A stretch of DNA of 64,000 nt from Rozella allomycis CSF55 (Eukaryota), in assembly GCA_000442015.1 (NCBI GenBank), contig KE561068.1, positions 1 through 64,000 on the forward strand. Reading direction: 5' to 3'. The notes below the pieces were generated by a model. That model saw nothing but the letters and a program-made list of their open reading frames with translations, was not told the DNA's origin and searched no databases. Below, piece after piece: positions 537 to 63,800 of the stretch (the stretch's first letter is position 1; each line of letters begins with the position of its first letter). The position numbers and the translations under genes are program-made.

Positions 537-610
537 TGCTCCCAGCAGGGGTCGAACCTGCGGCCTTCGCGTTATTAGCACGACGCTCTAACCAACTGAG
601 CTATGGGAGC
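537..610 (-). tRNA. tRNA-Ile(AAU), copy 1
   Basis: Reverse complement GCTCCCATAGCTCAGTTGGTTAGAGCGTCGTGCT-AAT-AACGCGAAGGCCGCAGGTTCGACCCCTGCTGGGAGCA folds as a cloverleaf with A and B boxes and is followed by TTTT. Confidence 0.97.
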
Positions 611-654
611 TGCTGCCACATTTTTGGTGGCATAGTTAAATTGATAACCACTGC

Positions 655-1817
655 ATGACAATACGTACCTTATCATGCACAATATTTTAGTTCCCGTTAA
701 AGTAGTTATAACTGGTGCTGCAGGGCAAATAGCTTACTCTCTTTTATTCCATGTTTGTTCGGGCCAAATCTTTGGAAATGACCAAGTAAGGTTCATGCGT
801 TTCTGATACTTGAAAATCGATTTATATTTGCTAGAAATACCTTCCATGATCAGCCAGTTAGAAGGAGTTAGAATGGAACTAGAAGACTGTGCATTTCCTT
901 TACTTAACCGTATTGATAAATAATGACATTTTTTCAGAACTATCGATAACGGATAATCTTGAAGAAGCGTTTAAAGATGCAGATTATGCCTTTTTAATTG
1001 GAGCTCTACCGAGAAAGCAGTAACAATTAGCAGCGACCAAGATTTCTTAGAGGTATGGAGAGAAAAGACTTGCTAAAATCAAATGCTTCAATTTTCCGTA
1101 ATCAAGGTCTTGTCATAGATAATGTGGCCAAAAAATCTATTAAGGTATTAAAAAAACCCATGATTTGTAGATTTTGGTAGTAGGTAATCCCGCCAATACA
1201 AATGCGTATATTTTGAACAAGTCAACGCCTTCAATACCGTCTAAAAATATATCTGCCTTAACCCGCCTAGATCAGAATCGTGCCACGTTCCAAATAAGCA
1301 AGACTTTAGGTGTTCCGGTAAGTAAGATTCAGAATGTCGTGGTCTGGGGAAACCACTCTAATACCCAATTCCCGGATCCGAAACACGCCCTTTTTGATGA
1401 TGGCCGCCAAGTTTGGCCTATTTTAAAAGCAAAATTTGACGAGCCGAATTTTATTGAAACTGTACAGAACCGTGGAACGGATGTTATCAAAGCCAGAAAA
1501 TTGTCATCTGCCATGAGTGCCGCCAAAGCTTGCGCAGATCATATGAGGGACTGGTGCTTAGGAACAAAACAGGTACCAAAAGTAAAATCGTCTGTCCAAC
1601 TTAGGGTGAAATAGTATCAATGGCTGTAGTGTCCAATGGAAACATGTATGGTATACCTAAAGATATCGTATTTTCTGTTCCAGTAACTTGCAATAATGGA
1701 GAATGGAAACTTGTTGAAGGGATTGAACTAGATTTTAGTTCAAAAAAGTACTTTGAAAGTACTTTGAACGAGCTAAAACAGGAAGCGTTAGATGCAGAGT
1801 TTGTGTTTCAAGAATGA
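655..1817 (+). CDS. MDH1: cytosolic-type malate dehydrogenase, 6 micro-introns
   Basis: Spliced product contains [53 protein letters not shown] and [13 protein letters not shown]. Introns are 26-32 nt; intron 786-812 reads GT..TG. Confidence 0.95.
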
Positions 1818-1903
1818 TTGCTTAATTAAAGATTGGTTTTTATGCTTATTGATTTTTGTCCGTCTTTATCATTTTATCTTTNTTTCTAAAACGGGAATTT
1901 TCG

Positions 1904-3403
1904 ATGCGCGCAATCCTAAATGCCCGACAATTAAAAAATCAAAGTAAAAATTCATTTACAATATAATTAAAAGTATACTTACCTTCTCTAAACGAAGGGC
2001 CTTATTTGCAATTTGGTTTGGATAAGGTTCTCTTCACAAAGGGAGTCCATAAATTGAAAGAGAAGGGTGAATATAGGTTTCCACAATACCTAGAAAAACT
2101 ACCTCCAAGAGATAATATTAATATTGAAAACTTCAGCCATTTTGTTCACAGTTCGAATGATTCGGTATAAAGATTATTAAAGATACGATCTAGAAGTTGC
2201 ATGGAATTGCGAGAAAACTTGAGACCGAATATGTTACTTCAACATCTTCAATAACTTCAGCATTATCAATATTATATCTCGCCATTTCTATGCGAAGGAA
2301 GCCTGACATGTTGTACCTTTCCAAAGACTATACTTTTGAACCTAGACGATATACTAACAGAGTATTCTCACCAATAAGCATTATTGTAAATCCCTTACAA
2401 GGAGGTTTGACTAACATTCAATGTGAAAGGACATTTTCTAATAACATTTTGACCGATATGGGACACGTGTTTGAAAAACTAGTCGTTACAACCGAAGAAG
2501 AGTTTTCCAAAATATTGAATTTTAAAGAAGAACCGAAATCTAACCATAATTATGTTTATAATCAAGTAGGTCTTAGATTTATCAATTGTCAGGCGGGTTC
2601 GTTTCTGATACGGTCACAAATTGATTGTCAACACGAGAAATTGCAATATCACCGATTTGATATCAAATCAAGGGCCACATTTCCAATTAGATTTGACAAG
2701 GAAAACTATTCAGTACATTAAAGATTCCATAAATGATAGAAATATTTCGGTTATGAATTAAGGAAGGATAAGGGATTATATAATTCGTTTGAAAAAGAAT
2801 ATTACGACATGCATAGATCAGCTATGCTTAAATATTAGTAAGGATGTCTCACTATCCGTTATTAGTTTTCAGGTTAGATTGGGCCATATGGATGGAATAT
2901 TTGTTATCTATCACAGTGTTCGAAATATATTTGGATTCCAATATATATCTCGAAATGAAATGGAAAAAAGACTATTCGGATCGTCAAAAATTGCGCAAGC
3001 TTATTACTCTTTGACTATTCTGGCTCTGGAGAACATTTTCAACACGTTAAATTTAAACAGCGGTAAAAAGAGAAGAGTAATATTTGCTCTTGATGACTGT
3101 GTTTTGAAAATAATCGAAGAACAAGTCGATACTGAAACTAATCTTCCCATCGGTACTACAAACGTACATTCTGTTAACTTTACAACCTTCAATCAATTAA
3201 CGAAAATCGACGAAGCTTCAAGTATTATGAAAATTAGAAATGTTAATGACATTTCTATTGAATGTAATATTACAAAAAATGTGGAATCAAATACTTCCGT
3301 GAACTATGACGCAACAAGAAGACTTGCAGTTGACGGTAAACCTTCTTATATTAATGCTTCATTTTTAAACAAGTTGGAAAAATTATCAAGATTTTCACAA
3401 TAA
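1904..3403 (+). CDS. PET127: mitochondrial RNA-processing exonuclease Pet127-like, 5 introns
   Basis: GLDKVLF, STSSIT, FLIRSQIDC..FDIKSRA..IRFD, SFEKEYYDM.RSA.LKY, QVRLGHMDGIFV.YH...IFGFQYI match Pet127 motifs. Confidence 0.85.
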
Positions 3404-3456
3404 ACATACTTTCATATTACAATAAAAATATTTCATGTAAAAATATATCATAAAGT

Positions 3457-3530
3457 TGCTCCCAGCAGGGGTCGAACCTGCGGCCTTCGCGTTATTAGCA
3501 CGACGCTCTAACCAACTGAGCTATGGGAGC
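3457..3530 (-). tRNA. tRNA-Ile(AAU), copy 2
   Basis: Identical 74-nt sequence to 537-610. Confidence 0.97.
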
Positions 3531-3616
3531 TGTTGTGGAAAATTCAAGGCAGCGCTAATGAATACGACAAGATAATGACATATTGTGGAGTATAATAGAA
3601 ATTTATTTAGTGGTAT

Positions 3617-4199
3617 TCATTTCAATAAAGACCTAGCTAATTGTTCTTTAGCCATTGCTAAAGCTCTCGAGATTGACTCTTCCGTTAAACTGATTTCAAT
3701 AGATGAGTCGCGTCCTTTAATAAGTTGGCTAACGGTATCATATAGAACATTTGGATTTCCCTCCAACAAAATACCATCGTCTATCAACTCATCCAAAACC
3801 AGCAGCACCAGATCTAATTGATCGACTATTGATTTCTTTGAAAATTGATTTCTTGTTATTTGAATCAAAATACATTACTTTATCAATTTTTGAAGGACGT
3901 TTGTTAGACAGACAATGATATTTTCCAGCAATAGTTCGTTTTCATCAGCTGCACCAACGACGTATACAAAAACGTCTCCAATATTTCTGTATATCACGAT
4001 TCTGTTATCCAAAAACAAAACATCTTCTACCGATGACTATAATAGCGTTCTAGTTACCAAAAACTTTGCGAGACTTTGCAAAGAGAGACTTTTCAAATTC
4101 TACGGTTACCGAATCAGAGTAGTATTTGGATAGAATTCTTTTGCCGTCTTCATCAAGAAAGATTATTGCTTGGACGGAATATAGAGATAGGGGTGACAT
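3617..4199 (-). CDS. RET3: coatomer zeta subunit, 2 introns
   Basis: MSPLSLYSVQAIIFLDEDGKRILSKYY ... LVLDELIDDGILLE ... AKEQLARSLLK. Confidence 0.92.
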
Positions 4200-4359
4200 T
4201 TTGGAAAATTGGCAATTGAAGTTATCGTGTTATCGAATTATAAATATCACGGAACATCACGAAAATAGACAATTTATATGCTTTTAAATTACTAAAGTTA
4301 TCTGATTTGATATTTTAATTTTGCATTTTTTGTCTCCCTTAGTTTTGCAAAGCCACAAA

Positions 4360-6352
4360 ATGGAAAATTTTGACAAGACTGTTGAGTACCCTGACCTTGA
4401 AGAGAAATATAAAGTTGAACAAGAGACTGGTTATGATAACTATGTTGTTGTGATTGGACTTCCTATTGTTGAACCAGCGAAAAAGGATAAGTTGTTTGCT
4501 TACATCAAAGCAAAAGTGTCGCCCGTATTCGCTGAAGCCAAGGATGCGTTAATGCCATTTACTGATGGAAAGTCTCACGGTGCGTTGTTTGTGGAATTTG
4601 AAACGGCCGAATTAGCGAACAAGTTTAGCAAGGCTGCTGATAATTTTCGTTTTGACAAAAACCATACTTTGACTGCAAACGTTATGACTGAGGTGGATAG
4701 AATTATGAACATGGAAGAAGAATTCAAAGAGCCGGAAATGCCAGAGTATGAAGAAAAGGGAAACATGAAGGAATGGCTTCTTGATGAGTTGTCTCGCGAA
4801 CAGTTTTCTTTTGTCAGTGGGAATAAGCTTAATGTAAAGTGGTACATTGGAGATCAAGCTGAGATTGCCTTTGAACAAAAAGTAAGTCAGTTAAGTTTAG
4901 TGAAATAGAATGTTGACAAGTATGTTTGGAGTCCCCTTGGAACGTATTTGGCAGGAAGAACCCAAACTCATGTTGTGATGTGTGGTGGAAGTGGATTTAA
5001 ACCTGTGTTGACATTCCATCATCCAAAGGTTGTTTCCTTTGAGTTTTCACCAATGGAGAATTATTTGATAACATATTCTAATTCAGAGTCTGAAGAGTAT
5101 CAAACTTTTGTTTGGGATGTGAGAACTGGACAGAAGATTAGAGGATTTAAGGGGGCAACAAGTTTCAAGTTTTCATATAACGATGAATATGTCGCCAAAG
5201 TTCATGACAAGGCTGTGTTTGTTTATAAGACTGAGACTATGGAGTTGCTTGAAAAGAAGAGTATTAGAATGGGAGAAATAGCTGATTTTGAATGGTCGCC
5301 TGTCGCTAACATTATTGCGTTTTGGTCTAGAGTTGAACCAAACGTGCCTGCTCGTATTGTTTTAATGAAGATTCCTACAAGAGAAATAATTCGTTCAAAG
5401 AATTTATTTAACGTTGAAAAAGTAAGCATTTGTATTAAGAATTATAAAGTGTTCAATCTATTGGCAAAACAAGGGTGAATTTGTAGCATTTAAAGTTGAT
5501 AAACTTCAAAAGAAATTGACTACTTTTAATCTTGAAATATTTAAAATTACCGAGAAAGATTGTCCAGTAGAGATGATTGATCTTTCTTCAGATATTTCTG
5601 ATCTAGCATGGGAGCCTGAAAGAAGTCGATTTGTAACTTCTACAATCGTTGGAAGAAAAACAAATCTCTCTCTTTATGAGTTACAAAATGGTTCATTTAA
5701 ATTGATTAGAACTTTTGAAAGAGGCTTAATTCATAGAGTGTTTTGGTCACCAAAAGGAAGGTTTTGCATCTTTGCAGGCCATGAAGATTACGATGCCATC
5801 ACTGAATTTTGGGATCTCAATACTGATAAATCAAAAATTAAAATGTTAATATCCCTTGCATGTCCTTCTTCTGGTATCCTTTGGGAAGCGTCTGGTAGAT
5901 TCATTGTATCTTATTGCTCATCTGCTAAACTTAAAGGAAGCATGGGTTTTAAAATTTATGATTTCAAAGGATCTTTGCTCTATCAAGAAGGCGTTACTGA
6001 ATTTTCTTCTTTTGCTTGGCGTCCTCGCCCACCAACAACTCTACCTGAAGATCAAATAAAAGAAATCAAAAAGAATCTCAAAACCTACTCTGATAAATTT
6101 GAAGAAGAAGATAGACTTCGTTCTGATAAAGCTTATCGCGAAGTGGTTGAAAGACGCTCTAGACTTAAAAATGAATGGTTCTCATGGTTCAATGCCGCCA
6201 AAAAACTTTGGGATGAAAGCAAATCTGAAAGGATTGCTTTGTTTGATGGAATTGATTTCGATGAAGCTGCTTCTAATGACAGTGTTTTAGAAGATTGGAA
6301 TGAAGTAGTTATCAAAGAAACTATTGAACCATATCAACCTCCAAATCAATAA
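4360..6352 (+). CDS. PRT1: translation initiation factor eIF3 subunit B, 2 introns
   Basis: N-terminal RRM (VVIGLPIV, FDKNHTL), WD-like WSP repeats, RSKNLFNV, FAWRPRPPT, IKKNLKTYS. Confidence 0.93.
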
Positions 6353-6444
6353 ATTTAATTCAGTTATTTATATATTTTAATTCAATTCAAGACTTTTTTT
6401 GCTTTTAAAATCTCTAGGGGAAATCTTCATGTGAAATTTCTGGA

Positions 6445-8282
6445 ATGTCAGACGTGGACGTGGACGAGATATTAAAGAAATTAGACATTGATGACGGCAC
6501 TAACATCGACTGGGATGACGAAAAAGATGGAAAAGACCCAGAATTATTGGCTGAATTGAAAGAACTTCTTGGTAAGGAACCAGTAGTTCCTGAGCTGCAG
6601 TTAAGTGATAGTATTGATATATCTGGTGAAAATTTAAATCTTGAAGGACAAATAGTCGACGAAGAAGAAAACACTATTTCAGAGGGGGTAGACTTTAAGA
6701 TTGAAACGTCGACTCAAGAACAAACGATTCGTTTGGAGACTTCATCTGAGACTAGAATTACAGAGTCCGCTGATTCCAATTATCTTCCTATCGAAGAAAA
6801 ACTTAAATGCACGGACAAACAGATATTGGAAAAATATATTCGATTGGAGCAAGTCAAAGCAGTGCAATTTAAACAAGCTGGTAATAAACAAAACGCTATA
6901 GAATGTCTTAAAAACTCTAAACTATTAAAAAGCCGTTTGATTGAGATACAATCAAATATGGCTGAAAGTTTGCCGGCGCCGCAACAAAGGAAGAGCAGCT
7001 CAGATGAAAAGAATAACGTTGCAGAAACCAAATTGAAATCATCGCAGCCGTCAACCTCTCCAGTATTTGATCAGATCAAAGACATTTTAAAGTCGCAGAT
7101 TTCTTTTTGTAAAGAAAACACCAACCCTAAATTTGGAGAGCTGATATTGCTATTTCAAAAAGACTTAACACGAATTCTTGGACTTGAAAGAAATGGGTTG
7201 TCATTACCTCCATTCCTGTACAAGGACGTGGATGTGACATATGAACAATGTTACACGGACATGCCCTTAAATGAACTGAAGCTAGAAATTCGTAGTGTTT
7301 CCGGTCTCTATTTTAAGGATAATGGAAGCGTCATACCAGCATGTCCGTATTTTAACGTGGAATTTCCCTATCCTGAATCTCAAAAGGCATCATCTCCCGT
7401 GTTTAAACAAAGTAGTTCATTTGGTAATAAAATAACATGGAATTTATTGAATAGAACCCAATTATTCCAAGACTTTTGTGATTGATAGATCTAAGGCATT
7501 TAAGAGGTTCACAGAACGAAAAAAGTTGACTGTTGAGTTTTTCCATTACAGAGGATTTTTTAGAAAATCTGTTTCTATTGGCAAAGTGGTTATTCCCTTG
7601 AACACTTTGAACAAGAAAGCCTTAATTCACGAAGCGTTTCAAGTATGTATGCTTCTTTTTCGTATTGCTAGTTAATTGGTGCTGATAGAAAACCAACTGG
7701 AGCGATTATTGACATTATAATAAAAATACGCGAACCATTAGATGGAAATGTAGCAATTAATGAAACAAAACGATTTCTTTTTCTGCAGGAAAACGATCCT
7801 ATCAATTTGCCGAATTTTGCTTTGAATAGCAAACCTGAAATTATCCGACAGAAAAGCGGCAAGGAAGATAAGAAAAAACAAGTGAATGCATCTTGGGATA
7901 TCGAGATGGATGAACAACTCTTTGAGTAAGGTGCAATTAATCAAGATATTTTAGCATTGGTCGTTTTGAAAGCAATTTATTAATGGAAAAAGAAATTGAA
8001 AGAATTGATGCCTTAATAATAAACAATCGTGGAACTGCACCAGAATGTCTGGAGGATCGCAAGCAGCAACTTCAGATTAAGATAAACATGCTTGTTCTTC
8101 AAGTTCAAACTGGTAGCTTAACCTTGGACGAGTATATGAAAAGAGTTAACAGACAAATAGAGATAGAAAAACGGTGTGCTTTGGAATACAAGAAGGCTAA
8201 CAAAATTCAGCATGCCACGATGTGCATGTGGAGAATAAAAATAATGAAGGGTGAAATTGATGAGGTAGTGTCGCAACAATAA
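6445..8282 (+). CDS. coiled-coil and C2 domain protein (CC2D1/Lgd-like), 3 introns
   Basis: DPELLAEL, DM14-like AVQFKQAGNKQNAIECLK, C2 domain (FPYP, KKLTVEFFHYRGFFRK, DRKPTG..IKIREPL), C-terminal LQVQTGSLTLDEY. Confidence 0.7.
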
Positions 8283-12628: not shown

Positions 12629-13201
<573 letters not shown>

Positions 13202-13307
13202 AAGTTTACATTTGGTTGCCAAAAATTATGAATATATATTCCATTAAGGTTCTTAAAAATGATATGATCGGATTTAATGTTAAAGTTTACCCAATTGCTC
13301 AAAAGAT

Positions 13308-13380
13308 CGCCCCGCCTGGGGATCGAACCCAGAACCTTGCGGTTAAAAGCCGCACGCTCTACCGATTGAGCTAACAGGGC
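13308..13380 (-). tRNA. tRNA-Lys(UUU)
   Basis: Reverse complement GCCCTGTTAGCTCAATCGGTAGAGCGTGCGGCT-TTT-AACCGCAAGGTTCTGGGTTCGATCCCCAGGCGGGGCG. Confidence 0.96.
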
Positions 13381-13557
13381 TGAGACGTGGAATATAAAGC
13401 TAGACTATGACCATACATGTCTTTATGCTTAACCAATTAAACTATCCTACACTATCATATAAATATTGCCAAAGTTTGAATATTGATTGTTTCTACATAT
13501 TATGATCTACTTAAATCATAACGATACCCAATACCCCTGTCTACCGATTCATCAACA

Positions 13558-14396
13558 ATGTGGCCATTTCTTCGAGACATTGATGGAAAAAGGGTATTTG
13601 CACCTTTACGAAGCATTATGGTCTTTCATTTAAGATGGAAAGACAAGTTGTTGACGAGTATTGATACGTTATATCTTTAATCGAGAATATTTTCGTGATC
13701 TCAGCACTCATTCTGACCTTGCCCATAAAGTTCCACCTCACCTCTATCCCACACCAAAATGGATGGATGCACATCATCATTATGATCCATACACGGATAC
13801 AAGAACCCATGAACCAATTTTAGGCCCAGGTGATGATTTTGTGATAGAGTAATTAGAAAGAAAATTTTATTTGGGCACAACTAGAAGACTTGGAGGGCTT
13901 CTATCATCAGGTACTTTTACTCCGCGATACACTCATCCTTATTTGCAATTGTCAAAAGGGGCTTCAAGATTAGAATATCTTGGTCGTAAATATATACACA
14001 ATATGCGAAAAAGGTTTACTCGGGAAGCCTGTTGTCCTAAATTATCCCCTTGTCATGGAAAAGAAGGGGACAATGGATGACCCAATCATTGTTGACACGA
14101 TTATGGGCATTCGTACTGTAGGTTGCACCGGTAATTTAGATACTTGACATTGAACAGGATATCCAAAGTATTCACATGAACAAGTGTACTTTCGAATGAA
14201 AGCTGGAGAGACAACCCGCTGCCCTGATTGCTGCCAGGCATTTCATTTGCGATACATTGTTGATCCAGATGACATTTCCAGAGATTCCGAAAGATTCTGG
14301 AAAACACACGTTGATCCAAACGCAGTCTTTCCGGAAAAGAGTCATGGACATGAAGACCACGGCCATCATGGCGGAAATACTGCTCATCAACATTAA
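13558..14396 (+). CDS. COX4: cytochrome c oxidase subunit Vb (yeast Cox4)-like; 5' exon structure uncertain
   Basis: GASRLEYLG, KGTMDDPIIV, VGCTG|YP..SH and RCPDCCQAF (Zn ligands) match the COX5B family. Confidence 0.8.
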
Positions 14397-14560
14397 TAAA
14401 GATAACGCCTTGATATTGATACTTGCCAATTTACACATGATTTATATATTGATGAGCAACGATGCCGATGGTAAGAGAGATTTTACGAGTATCAATTGTT
14501 GTACAGGTACTGCTGCTGTTCATCAAGACTTTAGGGTTCTTTAAAAAGAACAAAAAAAGA

Positions 14561-14642
14561 TGATTGAAGAGGGGTTAGAACCCTCGCCTCCGAAGAGATC
14601 AGGGCCTAAACCTGACGCCTTAGACCACTCGGCCATTCAACC
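14561..14642 (-). tRNA. tRNA-Leu(UAG), atypical T-loop TTCTAA
   Basis: Reverse complement GGTTGAATGGCCGAGTGGTCTAAGGCGTCAGGTT-TAG-GCCCTGATCTCTTCGGAGGCGAGGGTTCTAACCCCTCTTCAATCA, with a long variable arm. Confidence 0.92.
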
Positions 14643-14799
14643 ATGTCTATTTTTAACCAAAATTATTCATATTTTTATTATCTTTGGGCCGTCTGAGATT
14701 TGATTCAGTTTTGCTATTCCATTGTTATATTTAATATTAATATTACAAAATTACAAATTAATCATGAATAATATTATATATTACTATATTTTATTAGGG

Positions 14800-15165
14800 T
14801 CAGTTTATATTCCCAGGCATGTTTGGAATGTGTGCTCCTCGGCCAGCAGGGGCATCAGATAGTCTTCTACACTTTTTGCCATCATATCTTTTGCCCCGAC
14901 CACAGACTGTGCAACCGTCGCCACCATCCGGAAGCTTAAATGATCGCCCATCTCTGTCGTAGATCCAATGCCTTAATGTTCTTTGAACATCTGGTGCATC
15001 GCATGAACCTTTGGTATAGCAAGAAACATCGTATTCGTTAAACATAGGAATTACATCTTTTGCTAATTGCCAATCTCCGCCTCTTGGACAAGGATTTTTG
15101 ACCTCATTGGATATAACGTACCCCGTAGCTATAGGAGTTAAGAGTACAAGTCCCCAAATATACAT
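14800..15165 (-). CDS. small secreted cysteine-rich protein (121 aa)
   Basis: Signal-peptide-like MYIWGLVLLTPIATG, 6 Cys, intronless. Confidence 0.7.
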   Translation of the reverse strand: MYIWGLVLLTPIATGYVISNEVKNPCPRGGDWQLAKDVIPMFNEYDVSCYTKGSCDAPDVQRTLRHWIYDRDGRSFKLPDGGDGCTVCGRGKRYDGKKCRRLSDAPAGRGAHIPNMPGNIN

Positions 15166-15390
15166 TTACCTTGATCTTGACTCCCCGAAATTCTGTTGCA
15201 TATATACTCTGAAACACCAATTATTTATTGTCGCATCTATATATAAACAAATTTGCTATAAATGGTAATATTATTTCCTGCTTTATTGCCTAATGACATT
15301 TCATATAAAAAATTTCCTTTTTTATCATATATTCTGGAAAATTCCCCTGCCTATATTGGCAGAGCGAGCACCCCTGTATCGACGAGAGAA

Positions 15391-17165
15391 ATGTTTCGAC
15401 TTGCCGCAAAGAATACACTTTCAACTCTTAAGAAGCCACTTGCTTTTTCACCAAGATTATATTCTCAAGCTAAAGAAATCCGATTTGGGGATGACGGACG
15501 CAGTGCCATGGGCAGAGGAGTCAATATTTTGGCAAATGCAGTAATTATATTGAATATCTTTGAAAGGTTGCTGTTACCCTTGGCCCAAAAGGAAGAAATG
15601 TTATTATTGAGCAATCATATGGTCCTCCAAAAATTACCAAAGATGGAGTAACAGTTGCAAAGGCAATCACTTTGGAAGATAAGTTTGAAAACTTGGGTGC
15701 TCGTGTAGTTCAAGATGTCGCTCATAGAACAAATGAAGAAGCTGGAGATGGAACAACTACAGCTACCGTTCTTGCCAGAGCTATATTCACCGAAGGATTA
15801 AAGAGCATTGCCGCAGGAGTCAATCCAATGGATTTGAGAAGAGGTGTGACTTTGGCAGTTAACACTACAATTGATTTTTTGAAATCAAATGCTACAACGT
15901 AAGAACTTCTAGCGATTTTCAAAAGTGTTACAACACCTGAACAAATCAAACAAGTCGCAACAATTTCCGCTAACGGAGATGAACATGTAGGACAACTTAT
16001 TGCTGATGCTATGGTTAAAGTTACTAAGGAAGGTGTCATCACTGTCCAAGATGGAAAAACTTTGAATGATGAATTGGAAGTTACTGAAGGAATGAAATTT
16101 GATCGTGGTTTCATTTCGCCATATTTTGTCACCGACGCCAAGTCCCAAAAAGTTGAATATGAAAATGCACTTATTTTGCTTTCTGAAAAGAAAATCTCTA
16201 ACGTTCACGATATCATTCCAGCTCTTGAAATCGCCGCTACAACAAGACAACCTTTGTTGGTTGTTGCTGAAGATGTTGACGGAGAAGCTTTGGCAGCCAT
16301 GTTGGTTAACAAATTAAGGGGACAAGTTTCTTGCTGTGCAATTAAAGCTCCAGGCTTTGGTGATAACAGAAAGAACATTCTCGAAGATATTGCTATTGTT
16401 TCTGGAGCCAAAGTATTCAATGATGAAGTTAATACCAAGTTGGACAAACTCACTCGTGATCAATTGGGAGTTATTGCCAACGCTGTTATTACCAAAGATG
16501 ATACAATTTTTATGAATCTTAAGACTGACGCTACTTTGGTTCATGAACGTTGTGAAGCTATTCGTCAATCAATCAGTGAAACTACTTCAGAATATGAAAA
16601 AGAAAAACTTCAAGAACGTTTGGCCAAACTTCGTGGAGGAGTTGCTGTTATCAAGGTTGGTGGTGTTTCAGAAGTAGAAGTTGGTGAAAAGAAAGACAGA
16701 TTCGTTGATGCATTGAATGCTACCCGTGCTGCTGTTGAAGAAGGTATTATTCCTGGAGGTGCTTCTGCTTTGGTCAAGGCTGTTCCAATCATAAATGAAA
16801 TGGCTTCTAAAGAACAAAACTTTGATGTTAAATTAGGACTTCAAATTGTAGCTAAAGCTATTCAAGCACCACTAAAGACTATTGTTGACAATGCTGGACA
16901 AGAAGGTGCAGTTGTTGTAGGACAAGTTTTATCTAACCACAAAAACTTCCCATACGGATACAATGCTGCCATTGGTGAATATTGCAATATGATTGAATCT
17001 GGAATTGTTGATCCCTTGAAAGTTGTTCGCACCGCATTGAATGATGCATCTGCTATTGCTTCTTTATTGTCTACATCTGAAGCTGGAATCGTCTCTGTTG
17101 AAAAGAAGGAATCAGGATCCGCACCAGGAATGGGAGGTATGGGTGGAATGGACGGTATGATGTAA
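15391..17165 (+). CDS. HSP60: mitochondrial chaperonin Hsp60, 2 introns
   Basis: Presequence [47 protein letters not shown] tail. Confidence 0.98.
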
Positions 17166-33100: not shown

Positions 33101-36100
33101 GAAAGAAAGAAACAGTTTGTGTTTACTGATGGAGAGACTGTTGATTTGAACCCTGAAGTTGGATACTTCATTACAATGAATCCTGGGTACGCTGGGCGTG
33201 TAGCGTTACCAGAGAATTTGAAGACACATTTCAGATATGTAGCAATGGTAATACTTAATGTCAATTTTTATTAAAGATGGTGCCAGATAGACAGATTATT
33301 ATAAGAGTAAAGTTGGCTGGCTGTGGTTTCCAAAACAATGTTATTCTAGCTAGAAAGTTTTTCGTATTGTACAGATTGTGTGAAGAACAATTATCAAAGC
33401 AAGTCCATTATGACTTTGGGTTGAGAAACATTTTATCGGTGTTGAGAACATCAGGTGCTGTGAAGAGGGCGAGTCCCGAAGATTCAGAGAATTTGATTAT
33501 TATGAGAGTATTGAGAGACATGAATTTGTCTAAACTGGTTGATGAAGATGAGAATTTGTTTTTGAGTTTGGTGAATGATTTGTTTCCAGGGCTTGTTGCA
33601 AAGAAGGCTTCGTATCCTGAAGTTGAAAAAGCTATTGAGCAGCAGCTGGTTGAAATGAATCTGGTTAATCATCCACCGTGGGTGTTGAAAGTTATACAGT
33701 TCTATGAAACGTGCAAAGTGAGGCATGGAATTATGATATTGGGGCCAACTGGAGCTGGAAAGACCAAGTGTATTAATGTGTTGTTGAAAGCGATGACTGC
33801 AGTTGCTGAACCACACAAAGAGATTAGAATGAACCCCAAGGCTATCACTGATTACCAAATGTTTGGCAGGTTGGATGTTACTACTAATGATTGGACTGAT
33901 GGAATCTTTTCTGCCATCTGGCGAAAGACAATAAAAAAGAAGGGAGAGTTTATTTGGATTGTGTTGGATGGACCGGTTGATGCTGTGTGGATTGAAAATT
34001 TGAATTCAGTGTTAGATGATAATAGATGTTTGACGTTGGCTAATGGTGATAGAATACCAATGTCGTCTACGAGCAAATTAATGTTTGAAGTGCATAGTTT
34101 AGATAATGCATCGCCAGCTACTGTGTCTCGATGCGGGATGATTTATATTGGCATTGTGGCAATGACTTGGGATATTGTGATTCAGTCTTGGCTTAAAACG
34201 AGACCGAAGAATGAAGCTGAAATATTTGAACCTTTATTTAAAGATACTTTTGGTAAACAGCGTTTTATTTAGTTACAAAGGTGTTGCTGATCAGTTTGTT
34301 AATTTGGAGCTGCATCAAAAGATGGATGTTCCTGCTAATAATTCTATTGTTACTGTAGCTAACTTGTTGGATGGATTGATACCTGCGCAAGAGCAAGGAA
34401 AGGCTATTGATAGAGATCATATGCAAAGACTTTACATTTTTGCATTCTTTTGGTAACTATCCATGATTTGAAATATGACAGGGGTGTTGGAGCGTTGTTA
34501 GAATTAGATGAAAGAAAGAAATTGCAGAGTTTGATATTTGAAAAGTTTCCAGATCTATTGTATCCAAAGATGGAAGATCCAAATGATACAATTTATGAAT
34601 ATTATGTAACAGAGCAAGGAGAATGGAAGCATTGGAAAGAGAGAGTTCCTAATTGGGAGTATCCAACTGATTCTACTCCAGAGTTTTCATCTATTATAGT
34701 TCCTACAGTAGACAATGTGCGTGTTGAATTTTTAATTTCAACGTTATCAAAGCTGGGCAAGAGTGTTTTGCTTATTGGTGAGCCTGGAACAGCCAAGACA
34801 GTTACAATTCAAAGATTTTTAGCTAAATTGGATTCAGATGTTCATTTGAAGAAGAGTTTGAATTTTTCATCAGCAACAACGCCTATGATATTCCAGAGAA
34901 CTGTTGAATCATTTTTGGATAAGAGATTGGGATCAACGTATGGTCCGCCAGCTGGAAAGAAGATGACACTGTTTATTGATGATATATCAGCGCCCGAGAT
35001 CAATGTATGGTTGGATCAACCTACAGCTGAAATTCTGCGCCAGCTGGTTGAATACCAAGGAGTTTACAATTTAGATAAGCCTGGTGACTGGACATCCATT
35101 GTAGATTTGCAATTTCTGGGAGCCATGATGCACCCCGGTGGTGGCAGAAACAATATTCCAATGCGACTGAAGCGACATTTTAATATTTTTAACTGCACGA
35201 TTCCATCTGATGTGTCTGTTGACAAAATCTTTGGAACAATGCTGAGTGGCCATTTTCATGAAAAGCGAGGATTTCCTGAAGATGTTAGACAACTAGTTAC
35301 AAAGATTCCGAGTCTGACGCGTAAATTGTGGCAAGCAACCAAGACTAAAATGCTCCCGACGCCTGCTAAATTCCATTATATTTTCAATTTAAGAGATTTG
35401 AGTAGAATTGTAGAAGGGATGTTGTATTCCACAAGTGAAGTTGTGAACACTGCAAAGACATTAATGCTGTTGTGGGAGCACGAGTGTTCGAGGGTTTTGC
35501 CTGATAGATTTACAACGAATGAAGATATTGAATGGTTTAATAAGACTGTGTTGAGTGTTGTTAATAAGGATTTGGGGCTGGAATATTCAAAGTATATTCA
35601 GCAGAGAGCTTATTGGGTTGATTTTCTTAGAGATGCGCCTGAAGTTGAAGAGGGATCGGAGGAGGAGCCTGAAATGCCTAAAGTTTATGAAATGATTCCG
35701 TCGTTTGATCATTTGAGGGATAGATTGCAGTTTTTTATGAGACAGTATAATGAAACTGTAAGAGGAGGGAAAATGGTAAATTTATTTGTGTAATGTTAAT
35801 TATAGGTAAATTAATTCAGTGATTTTGATTGTAGGATTTAGTGTTGTTTGAAGATGCAATGAAACATATTGTAAAGATTAGTAGAATTATAAGAACACCA
35901 AGAGGTAATGCTCTGTTGGTTGGTGTTGGTGGAAGTGGAAAACAATCATTGACTAAATTAGCTTCTTACATTGCAAGAAACCAAATCTTCCAAATAACAA
36001 TTTCAAAGAACTACAATGCATCAAATTTAATGGATGATTTAAAGTTTATGTACAAGCTAGCAGGGTTACAAGGAAAGCCAGTTACATTTATATTCACTGA

Positions 36101-39100
36101 TAATGAAATCAAGGAAGAAACATTTTTAGAATTTATTAATAACATGTTAACATCAGGAGAAGTATCAAACTTGTTTCCAAAAGACGAAGTTATCATGATT
36201 TCATCCGACATGAGACCGATAATGAAGAAAGTCAGACCCCAAACAATTGATACAAATGAAAATTTATGGCAATTCTTTATTGACAGAGTCAAGAGCAATC
36301 TACACATAGTTTTATCATTCTCGCCTGTTGGAGACAAGTTTAGAAACAGAGCATTGAAGTTCCCTGGACTGATTAGTGGTTGTACAATGGACTGGTTTAC
36401 TAGATGGCCAAGTGAAGCGTTGAGAGCTGTTTCAGAGAAATTCTTGCAAGAATTTGACATTACATGTTCAGAGCAAGTCAAGATGGAAGTTGTTAACCAT
36501 ATGGCCTTTGTGCATGATTCTGTCACTGATATGTGTCAGCAATACTTTTTGCAGTTTAGAAGAAGCACCCATGTCACTCCAAAATCGTATCTAAGTTTTA
36601 TTAATTCTTACATGTCATTGTATAGCAAGAAGAGGAGAGAAGTTGGCGAGTTGAGTGACAGAATGAATATGGGGCTGTCTAAACTATTGGAAGCTACTAA
36701 ATCTGTTGCTGTGTTGAAAGAACAGTTGATTGTTAAAGAAAAGGATCTTGTTGTCGCCAGCAAGGAAGCCGATATTGTTCTAGTTGATGTGTCTGCTGCC
36801 ACTGCCGATGCTGAAAAGGTTAAAGAGGCAGTTTTAAAAGTCAAATTGAAGTCTGAGAGTATTGCGAATGCTATCAAAAAGGATAAAGAAGAAGCCGAAG
36901 GACAATTGGAAGCAGCCAGACCAGCGTTGGAGGAAGCAACAAAGGCATTGAATTCTATTCAGCCAGCGCATATTTCAACAATAAGAAAACTAGCTAAACC
37001 TCCACATCTGATTATGAGGATTATGGATGCTGTGCTGATTTTGCAAAAGAGGAGAATTGATGCTGTTATTCCTGATCCTGAGAGACCCTGTGTTAAACCT
37101 TGCTGGAGTGAATCTTTGAGATTAATGTCGCAGAGTGATTTCTTGTCTTCTTTAATCAACTTTCCATGTGATGAAATTAATGCAGAGACTGTGGAGCTGT
37201 TGGATCCTTACCTTGAAATGCCAGATTTTAATTTGGAAGGTGCAAAGAAGGTGTCGGCTGATGTTGCAGGTAACTTTTAATGTTGAAATTCACATTTAGG
37301 TTTAGCATCGTGGGTTAGAGCAATGTCATTCTATTACACTATCAATAAAAAGGTTATTCCGTTGAAAATGAATTTAGCAGTGCAAGAAAAGAAGTTGGAG
37401 ATTGCGATGGCTGATTTGAACAAGGCTCAAAAGACTTTGGATGAGAAGCAAGCTGAATTGGATGTGTTTAAACAGAAATACAATGCTGCTATAACAAATA
37501 AACAGGCGTTGCAAGATGATGCTGATTCTTGCAAGAGAAAGATGACTGCTGCAACTGCGTTGATTAATGGATTGAAGGGAGAGAAAGATAGATGGACATT
37601 GCAAAGCAAAGAGTTTGCAGAGCAGATTGGAAGACTTGTTGGTGATGTTATTCTGGCTACAGCATTCTTGTCGTATTCTGGGCCGTTTAATCAGACGTTT
37701 AGAACCCAGTTGCTGTCTATTTGGAAGGAAGATTTGAAAAAGAGAAAGATTCCGTTTTCTGCTGATGTTGATATTATCTCACTGCTTGTGGATGGCACTA
37801 CTATTGGAGAATGGAATATACAGGGACTGCCGACTGATGAGTTGTCTATACAGAATGGAATTATTGTTACGCAGGGAACGAGGTATCCACTGTTGATTGA
37901 TCCACAGGGACAGGCGAGATCATGGATCAGGAAGAGAGAAGAGAGCAGAGGGTTGATTGTTACGACATTGGGCAACAAGTATTTCAGACAGCATATTGAA
38001 GATTGTGTGTCGCAAGGGAAGCCATTGCTGATTGAAGATGTGGAAGAATCACTGGATCCAACATTGGACAATATTCTGGAAAAGAATTTGATAAAATCAG
38101 GGAAATCGTTTAAAGTTATTTTTGGAGAAAAGGAATTAGATTTTACTGAAGGATTTTGTTTATTCATTACAACAAAGTTGGCTAATCCGAGATATTCGCC
38201 TGAAATTTATGCAAAGACTTCTATTATTGATTTCACTGTGACGCAAAAGGGATTGGAAGATCAATTGTTGGGAAGAGTTATAATGAAGGAGAAGCAGGAA
38301 TTGGAAACGGAGAGATCCAAGTTGCTGGAAGAGGTTAATTCTAATAAGAAAAAGATGAAAGAATTGGAAGATAATTTACTGCAGAGATTAACTTCAACGC
38401 AAGGGTCGCTAGTAGATGATGAAAGTTTGATTGAAGTGTTAGCCGTTACTAAAACAACTGCAGAGGAAGTGTCTGAAAAGTTGGTGATTGCAGCAAGCTG
38501 AAACGCAAAAGAAAATAACGATTGCGAGAGAAGAATACAGACCAGTGGCTACTAGAGGATCTGTTTTGTATTTTCTTATTGCTGAAATGTCAATGATTAA
38601 TATAATGTACCAAACTTCATTGAGACAGTTTTTGAAGCTGTTTGATGAATCAATGTCGAAATCTAATCCGTCGCCTATTCCTTCAAAGAGAATTCAGAAT
38701 ATTATAGAGTATTGCACGTTGAGAACGTTCAAGTATATGGCTAGATCATTGTATGAAGAACACAAGCTGTTGTTTACATTGTTGTTGGCTTTAAAGATTG
38801 ATATGTTGGCTGGAAAGATTCCGTTTGATGATTTTAGATGTTTTATTAAAGGAGGAGCAGCGTTAGATATTAATGCAGTGATGAAGAAGCCATTTAATTG
38901 GATCTCTGATATGACTTGGCTGAATCTAGTTGCTTTGAGTAAAATTAATTCGTTCCAGGATATTCTCAATCAAGTTGGAAAGAATGAAAAAGCTTGGAAG
39001 AGTTGGTATGAAAAAGATTCGCCTGAAAATGAGCCGTTGCCTGGTGGATATTCAAACACTCTGGATTCATTTAGAAAATTAATGTTGATTCGTTCTTGGT

Positions 39101-60849: not shown

Positions 60850-63800
60850 TCACCAAAACGGACACCAACCAATATAGCACTGACACAAATTCTCCACCGC
60901 CGTCGCCTGCTGAATGAGCTTATCAACCTGCGCGTGTATATCCAGCGTAACACTAGTCTTAAAATCGCGACCTACATAACCACTACAACATCACCCAACC
61001 TGTAAGTTTATTCGACACTCTGGTAATAACAGCAACGGCTTTAGAATTCAAGACTTCGCCAAACGAGTCTTCATTCTGCAAATCACTTGATTTCTTGACC
61101 AGATCTTTTTTTGGCTCGTTATTTGATAGGATGCGCCAGTTGATTAGTGGATCGTAGACGAATGCTTCGAGGACGGCCATGAGACTGTCCTTGTTGGAGC
61201 GCAGGACTCGCATGACGTTTTCGCAGGTGATGCGGAAACTGCCTTCGATGCCACTGACCTAGCATGCATAAGATTAAAAGGGGTTACTTCCATTGCGTTT
61301 GAAAGCATGCGTGTTAATCTGAATGGAATCTTTTCAGGAAATTTGTCTCTGTGCATTGCAACTTCAAAGCAGTCGCCAAAGTCAATGTGGATTATTTTTC
61401 CAGAGATTCTGTCGAGCATTAAATTTGAAGGGTGTCGGTCGCCAAGCCCTGTTGAAATTACATGTAAATGGGATACCTAGAATGTAGCCGACCATTGACA
61501 TGACAGCCAGCGATCGCGTGTAATTTGTTCTTCTTTCAAGCCAAGCCTTGAAAATTATTACTGAATTAATTTACTTCAGAGTTTTTAGATTTGAGCCATA
61601 AAACGTTATACAAATCTTGACCATTAGTGTTATTCAAAGCGGTTTGGAACACTTCAATCTTTTGCAGCAATGTCAAATTATCATAATCGGGTGCCATCTA
61701 TTAATCAATGATCACTCTTATTACTTGGAGCATCATTCGGTGTTCAACATTCAACAACACTTTTCTTCCTTCTCTGTATTCCCTAATAAGTGCATGCAGC
61801 GTATCGCAATGAGGAACCCATCCTATTAAGAACAAACATCAATTAATACCTAGCAGCCCAGAGTTTTGAGAAAGAGGAATAGCAGGATACCTCTGAATGG
61901 ACAAATGCCGTTTAAACGTTTCAGGATCAGACGCCAAAATATTATTAACGAGCCCAAACAACTGCATAACTCGCTCATCCTGTCTCAAATCTTCGTGTCC
62001 TTTTAACAAGTATTGATATATTTTCCCATCAGTCCCTTTAATTGAACATTTACGCGGTCTCTGCTTTGAAGTAATAACAGTCAACGTTGGATGGAACATT
62101 TGGATTCTGATTATCTGTGAATTGGATTTATAAGTGCCTGGAACAGCCAATTCCAAATCTTTCGCGTTTAATAGTTTAGGTGAAATGTATTGTAGATCTA
62201 AACTAGTCATTTGAGATAGTTGCTTGGTGATTCTCTTAAACACGTGGTAATACAGATCCCATGCCATATTCAAATCATTAACGTTGTTTGATTTCTTGTA
62301 TTTTTTACACCAATCATTCGCTTCTTGTAAATCTCTTCCATACGCTTGCGTAAATGAAATCTCTCTCAACGTCTCTGCACCCCTTTCCATCATCAAATGC
62401 AGCGGTTCCAAAACACCAAGCATCCCTCATCTCCTATAAACTAAATGTTTACCTTCAATATTATGATCACTAAAGTACAATCTTGACGCTTCTTCCAACC
62501 CCTCATGCCAAACTTCCTGCCACAAAATAGCGACTCTAATCAGCTCTTGACTTACAAGCAAAACCTAAAACAAATCAACTAAAATCATACCTGCTCAACT
62601 AGATGTAACGAATGCGACTTCATCTTTTCAATAATAGCCAACGCCGACGTCTTTCTAGAATACGACGTAGATTTCGAAGCAACAGTCAGAGAATACACAA
62701 GCGCCTGCGGATGCTCCTTCCCAACATCATTCAACACACAATGAATCAATCTCCTAACCTGCGGCGTCGGCGCATGAATCCTCGCAATCAACTGCGGAAT
62801 AACTTGCAGCCAAGTGTCAATCCTCACCGAATTGAATCCCTAGCTGATCGCCATATTGACTTCAGGATGGTATCCGTATTTAAACATCAGCGTCAATAAC
62901 CTCAACGTATCTTGCAGCGAATTTTCAAATGACAGTGAAATCGATTTAAAGAATCCTTGCACAGCCGGCACTACAAATGAAACGATCGTTTGCTTGTTGC
63001 CCTGCCCACTCTTTTCCATATCAGACACAACCTATAATAACATTGTCAATTCATTACCTGGAAATTAGCCAACGCCCATGAATGCCACGCCTTGTACCAT
63101 TCAGGATTAAATCTAGTCGCCTCCAAAAACGCATGAATTATACTAGAATGCGAATCATCAGACAACAACGACTATTCACCCATACAACATTTAATTACTT
63201 TTTGGTATTGACCCAATTTATGGTAACATTTAGCCAACAATTTTGAATGCTCATTGATTGAAAATGTTTCTGAATTTGATTCTGAATTTTTCCTAATTTC
63301 CAAATCACCCGCCAAATTCAAAGTAAAATCGTACAAACTCTTCAATGTCTCCACCTTGTCTCTAGTCTCCCACGAATATTTCAAAAACGAATAAATTATC
63401 AGTGGCGGCGACTGGTCAAAAGAAATCAAATTCAATGGAATAGAATTCAGCAGCCCAGAGCCCAGTGATTTACTTGCTTTCAACGAAGAACCCTTCAACG
63501 AAGATTCTTTCAACGCCAACACTTTATCCACCTCGGCGTTTTTAAACACAAAATTGTTTTTAAACAAATCCAGAAATATTTTATTACAAATGCTAAACCT
63601 CCCAGCTTTCCTGCACAGATTAGCAAACTTTATCCACATTTCAATATTCTCTTCAGGCTCCATTACAAGCGATCGTATTTTTAAAATTCTCTGCCAAACT
63701 TCCACATTCCTTTGACAGCCACTCAATCTTTTCATCCAGCATTCTTTGATAATTGGCTGCTTTTCAGGATACTTTTTAAATGAAATAATCTCTTCCAACT

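Follow-up and report, generated by a model that had tools for sequence, protein, structure and literature searches.

A 27-nt intron ending in TG in the cytosolic-type malate dehydrogenase gene of Rozella allomycis CSF55

Judging from its sequence, a 27-nt insert in the malate dehydrogenase (MDH) gene of Rozella allomycis CSF55 is a genuine intron whose acceptor is either mutated or non-canonical. This insert, MDH intron 1, occupies positions 786 to 812 (+ strand) of the window, by which we mean the whole 64,000-nt stretch of DNA analysed here. It reads GTAAGGTTCATGCGTTTCTGATACTTG, opens with a GTAAGG donor and ends in CTTG. The terminal TG lies at 811 to 812 (+), and T811 is the base at issue. 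An in-frame TGA at 804 to 806 (+) would interrupt the frame of the preceding exon (675 to 785), and that frame resumes unchanged from 813. Sequence and translation therefore agree with the first-pass annotation, which had described a 27-nt insert carrying an in-frame TGA.

No usable AG was said to be present, and this also holds. The only AGs within or after the insert are located at 789 to 790, inside the GTAAG, and at 833 to 834, and neither closes an intron of 24, 27, or 30 nt. The latter, which is the first downstream AG (+ strand; the nearest beyond the donor), lies 22 nt past the TG, would give an intron of 49 nt, and would shift the frame if used. We also tried other closures, either by moving the 27-nt interval by −2 to +1 nt or by setting its length to 24 or 30 nt, and none of them gave a GT-AG, GC-AG, or AT-AC pair. 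U12-type (minor) introns have the donor motif [AG]TATCCTT; the donor found here, GTAAGGTT, rules out this class.

The gene and its best-fitting model

The host window is eukaryotic, with a G+C content of about 36% and very short introns. Its + strand gene at 675 to 1817 encodes a cytosolic-type MDH. The top protein match of this gene is malate dehydrogenase from R. allomycis CSF55 (P0001), and another gene in the window is a 100% match to an R. allomycis CSF55 protein (P0241). In the protein search, exon 5 shows 55 to 62% identity to animal cytosolic MDHs; the same search returned no MDH at an identity between 62% and 96%, and its matches include no transcript-derived MDH from R. allomycis. 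A search of sequencing runs likewise turned up no RNA run containing the gene, and the one RNA run labelled as this species gave no contig over 1 to 10000, an outcome that carries no information on expression. Scanning metagenomes with exon 5 yielded 80 loci, all of them 50 to 55% identical, and no close relative. Exons 5 and 6 match Pfam Ldh_1_C, and the profile alignment covers the catalytic motifs, including WGNHS. The predicted product has the features of the NAD-dependent cytosolic type, namely, the Ldh_1_N/Ldh_1_C domains and the catalytic R, D, and H motifs.

Exon 1 (675 to 785, +) runs from the ATG to ...GNDQ and contains the Rossmann motif TGAAGQIAY, as seen in its translation and in a gapless profile alignment. 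Exon 2 (813 to 909, +) encodes strand beta-2, including the acidic residue in LLEI, as placed by structure-sequence and profile alignments. The rest of the gene is undamaged. Four canonical GT-AG introns follow on the + strand, at 910 to 937 (intron 2, 28 nt), 1020 to 1050 (intron 3, 31 nt, in which earlier AGs with their ends at nt 11, 14, and 22 are passed over), 1145 to 1170 (intron 4, 26 nt), and 1573 to 1604 (intron 5, 32 nt), and the frame is open to the TGA stop codon at 1815 to 1817 (+).

Alternative gene models were spliced by coordinates with a script and scored against a profile of 93 homologues. The model in which the 27 nt are removed (785^813) reached 474.4 bits and aligned gaplessly across the junction. 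Leaving the insert unspliced, with the stop written as X, gave 460.0 bits; a 36-nt GT-AG alternative (799 to 834), with the other junctions as in the best model, scored 458.5 bits; and the deposited protein P0001 scored 433.6 bits. Among the models scored, only the removal of 786 to 812 restores a gapless fit to the homologues, which upholds the earlier claim that excision of the insert recovers the conserved spacing.

Two kinds of element were observed around the gene. A reverse-transcriptase element fragment (zf-RVT match on 40 to 600, − strand) adjoins a tRNA-Ile(AAT) at 537 to 610. Word depth over positions 1 to 334 is approximately 12,700 to 15,600 in two of the DNA runs discussed below (X1 and X3), compared with about 300 in the gene region; the element is therefore high-copy. 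The depth is also raised at a second tRNA-Ile(AAT), located at 3457 to 3530.

Introns of the window and the base at 811

Our census comprises the 51 other introns in the window, 28 of which are backed by homology, while 23 are junctions between adjacent coding reading frames. The homology-backed junctions were obtained by comparing the genes of the window with homologues from other species, with intron ends mostly left free as any dinucleotide. Each of the 23 reading-frame junctions is represented by a typical GT-AG solution, from a search that covered GT-AG alone. Reading frames were classed by codon usage, a moderately discriminating measure that served just to list junctions. The dynein heavy chain gene contributes 11 introns to the census, TOR contributes 9 (26 to 30 nt, with the interval from 63565 to 63252, which has 114 extra bases, left out), MDH contributes 4, ERGIC3 contributes 3, and a proteasome ATPase contributes 1, located by visual comparison with the Walker A motif. 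For all 28 homology-backed introns, there is a GT-AG solution at the best alignment score or at most 6 points from it.

Every one of the 51 introns ends in AG. Lengths fall between 26 and 32 nt in 50 of them; none is shorter than 26 nt, none measures 33 to 58 nt, and a single one has 59 nt. The 42 tabulated introns are distributed as follows: 26 nt (12 introns), 27 nt (7), 28 nt (7), 29 nt (7), 30 nt (3), 31 nt (4), 32 nt (1), and 59 nt (1). GTA donors, with A at +3, are found in 50 of the 51, and among the tabulated introns A is present at +4 in 33/42 and T at −3 in 29/42, the candidate likewise having T at −3. Internal AGs are skipped in 24 of the 42 tabulated introns, and the skipped ones end as far as nt 22. 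Of the 42 introns tested, 40 are closed by whichever AG is the earliest to end 26 nt or more from their donor. This acceptor rule needs an AG; it is no pure distance rule. It can be used to re-annotate the genome, by taking a GTA donor and closing the intron at the earliest AG found 26 nt or farther on.

MDH intron 1 is typical of this local type in its GTAAGG donor, its 27-nt length, its T at −3, and its in-frame stop. Accordingly, the GTAAG donor that the first-pass annotation had stressed is of the local kind. The intron departs from the first-AG rule, as it ends in TG and the first AG at 26 nt or more is found at nt 49. The CTGAT that had been read as a branch-like motif does not stand out as a signal: YTRAY, with its A located 3 to 16 nt from the intron end, is present in 12 of 50 introns, against a shuffle mean of 12.1, and 282 of 500 shuffles reach that count, so this search shows no branch consensus.

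The sole long intron of the census, at 35776 to 35834 (+, 59 nt), consists of a 30-nt and a 29-nt mini-intron placed back to back, with an internal ...TATAG followed directly by GTAAAT. It could contain a zero-length exon or be spliced in two steps.

Of 19 terminal reading frames examined in the window, 12 are followed by TAA, 5 by TGA, and 2 by TAG. Stop-codon reassignment is rejected, since all three stops end frames and one open frame extends for 1,351 codons under the standard code.

The possibility of an assembly error at 811, raised in the first-pass annotation, was addressed with DNA runs from three studies, separately assembled and covering the site in one contig each. T811 shows no difference in any of the three. 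The X1 contig spans 584 to 3485 and the X3 contig spans 583 to 1866, both with no other letters, and the X6 contig spans 583 to 3485 and departs from the window at three positions (619, 651, and 3418). The word depths of the three runs are 312, 263, and 174, and the contig is unbroken. The 4,630-base X6 piece at 3505 to 8137 carries 58 differences from the window; X6 thus represents another genotype, not the source of the window, and is an independent witness. From these contigs, which as a type of evidence can drop minority variants, an error at 811 is very unlikely.

Contig diversity is uneven in this region, with X6 having 3 differences over 583 to 3485 and 58 over 3505 to 8137. In the latter interval, the second genotype combines the 58 substitutions with several small indels around 4228 to 4265. 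Downstream of the MDH stop, a single N at 1883 corresponds to 19 bases present in the X1 and X6 contigs.

Splicing at TG and competing explanations

We take 786 to 812 to be an ordinary spliceosomal mini-intron with an acceptor that reads TTG where the local consensus is TAG. The ancestral TAG may have become TTG, most simply through one A-to-T change. A normal MDH would be encoded solely by a transcript joining 785 to 813, with exon ligation at the TG, and this junction would arise at least as a leaky product. The introns of the window are apparently defined by the GTA donor together with a narrow range of 26 to 32 nt, with no branch or pyrimidine-tract consensus. Given the lack of such a consensus, it is probably not until the second catalytic step that the 3′ end is selected, and UG would there be a poor but usable replacement for AG. 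The sole AG in reach, at nt 49, falls beyond the observed length range. We consider it a good possibility, if not quite a probable outcome, that the 785^813 junction is formed, perhaps with low efficiency, and yields a functional enzyme.

Several observations on the sequence favor the use of TG: the gene is otherwise intact, T811 is present in all three runs, and the 49-nt alternative is atypical. Others point the opposite way. All 51 other introns end in AG, and the acceptor rule depends on AG (40/42). In humans, TG is never the only acceptor, and AG>TG mutations in patients activate a neighboring AG rather than the TG (PMC2374985). In addition, the reading-frame lesions in the TOR and dynein genes indicate that disabling changes occur in this assembly or strain.

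These opposing observations would fit a dead or dying allele, in which the acceptor mutation abolishes correct splicing and no active cytosolic MDH is made, a reading to which we give appreciable but lesser weight. Its transcripts would either keep the intron, with the TGA at 804 to 806, or use the AG at 833 to 834, resulting in a 49-nt intron, a frameshift, and an early stop. The gene would then have become a pseudogene only very recently, in a parasite of reduced type, and the locus, if TG is unused, would represent a recent loss of cytosolic MDH. The first-AG rule, followed by 40 of 42 introns, predicts the AG at nt 49, and human AG>TG mutations behave alike (PMC2374985). Yet the MDH gene has no other damage, and introns of 33 to 58 nt are absent from the 51 in the census. 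T811 is also common to two genotypes that differ next door at 58 of 4,630 positions, although this argument is weak, as they differ at only 3 positions over 583 to 3485.

Lesions of a similar kind are found in two other genes of the window. The TOR kinase gene has an in-frame TAG at 62840 to 62842 (− strand), inside an ungapped alignment (...EVNMAIS[TAG]...), at a position occupied by E, Q, D, or K in 10/10 homologues. The sole GT-AG option for an intron around this TAG would measure 21 nt, under the 26-nt minimum, and would delete conserved residues. The TAG could be a nonsense mutation, a heterozygous allele, a read-through codon, or an error. In the axonemal dynein heavy chain gene, 4 extra bases (AGCT or GCAA) near 38493 to 38497 (+) shift the frame between ...EKLVIAA and ETQKKI..., two stretches that directly adjoin each other in the three chytrid homologues covering the site (P0122 to P0124). 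The zero frame at the extra bases reads AGC TGA, and the frame would likewise be mended by a +1 shift past the stop. The in-frame TAG and the +4-nt frameshift show that this assembly contains changes that disable genes, or else errors, and they keep the dead-allele reading of MDH alive.

Returning to splicing at TG, a stronger form of the proposal would have a spliceosome that measures 26 to 32 nt from the donor, as with a ruler, and ligates at YTG if that interval has no AG. MDH intron 1 would then be a constitutive GT-TG intron with TG as its sole productive acceptor, which we regard as unlikely. If this were true, the intron would be of a kind that the human survey did not find (PMC2374985). 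Should the TG junction be the main product, it would provide a natural sole non-AG acceptor in a U2-type intron, in a host genome that seems to define introns almost solely by donor and length window, and thus a simple system for studying how the second splicing step finds its site.

According to a further explanation, the public protein model would be right, and a weak donor at 799 (GTTTCT) would be joined to the AG ending at 834, taking out 36 nt (799 to 834, +) and giving a shortened enzyme. This intron, used by P0001, is the sole in-frame GT-AG solution and obeys the first-AG rule with its 26-nt floor. However, it scores 16 bits under the GT-TG model, its donor carries a T at +3, a position held by A in 50 of 51 introns, and its 36 nt fall outside the observed 26 to 32 nt. 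It also deletes KIDLYLLE, an NAD-binding strand. Residues 3 to 31 of exon 2 align with residues 37 to 65 of solved MDHs, e.g., 1bdm_A, so that the public model loses both a strand and an acidic residue that these structures align. NAD is bound through its adenosine ribose by the acidic residue in LLEI/LLDI; this residue, at the end of beta-2, is present as LLEI only with 785^813 and is replaced by Q in the public model.

P0001 makes two further choices of its own. It drops 15 nt in exon 5 (1318 to 1332, VSKIQ) and takes a 22-nt version of intron 3, adding FLR. With the same first intron, these choices cut the fit to the homologues from 458.5 to 433.6 bits. Since they too run contrary to homology, P0001 does not amount to transcript evidence; it has the look of a gene model predicted ab initio. 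In all, the public MDH protein model contains three errors, and we find it improbable that its first intron is the one used.

Finally, an artefact or recoding, whereby 811 would be a consensus error or hide a minority variant, or read-through of the TGA would add a 9-residue loop insertion, is very hard to credit: contigs can lose rare variants and the unspliced model (X at the stop) still scores 460.0 bits, but three runs from three studies concur at word depths of 174 to 312 with no contig break, TGA ends 5 of the 19 terminal reading frames, and the insert bears every hallmark of an intron.

Relation to known TG acceptors and mini-introns

In yeast, low-level splicing persists in reporters whose 3′ splice site is UuG. 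Human TG acceptors have been verified in 36 genes (PMC2374985, PMC4176328). As described in the former, TG is always an alternative to an AG at most 28 nt away and never the sole acceptor, and AG>TG mutations in patients activate neighboring AGs (PMC2374985). Taken together, the human tandems and the weak splicing of yeast UuG reporters make a leaky TG junction plausible where the second step picks the 3′ site.

As in the human U2-type TG-AG tandems described by Szafranski et al. 2007 (PMC2374985), MDH intron 1 has a GT donor and a 3′ TG dinucleotide, with a pyrimidine at −3 (T810) and a purine at +1 (A813). The MDH AG (833 to 834) is 22 nt from the TG (811 to 812), inside the 28-nt limit. Unlike in those tandems, the product of the MDH AG is out of frame, so that TG would be the sole productive site, and the intron has only 27 nt, with no recognizable branch or pyrimidine tract. 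MDH intron 1 also resembles the AG>TG loss-of-function mutations covered there, as it departs by one base, from YAG to YTG, in an intron that is otherwise normal. It differs from them in that nearby AGs are activated in those cases, whereas the nearest AG in MDH lies at a length unseen in 51 introns (PMC2374985).

Among the papers listed by our literature search, we found none on splice-site usage, non-AG acceptors, or the transcriptome of R. allomycis. Like the length-constrained mini-introns of compact genomes, the introns of the window have a sharp lower length limit (26 nt), run from a GTA donor to a YAG acceptor, and often contain in-frame stops; ciliates and nucleomorphs are the comparison cases for such introns. 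Putative introns of about 30 nt, without conserved 5′ and branch motifs, have been described in R. allomycis S23, in agreement with our census (PMC6349667). Compared with cytosolic-type NAD MDHs (Pfam PF00056/PF02866), the protein would be ordinary throughout if the TG junction is used.
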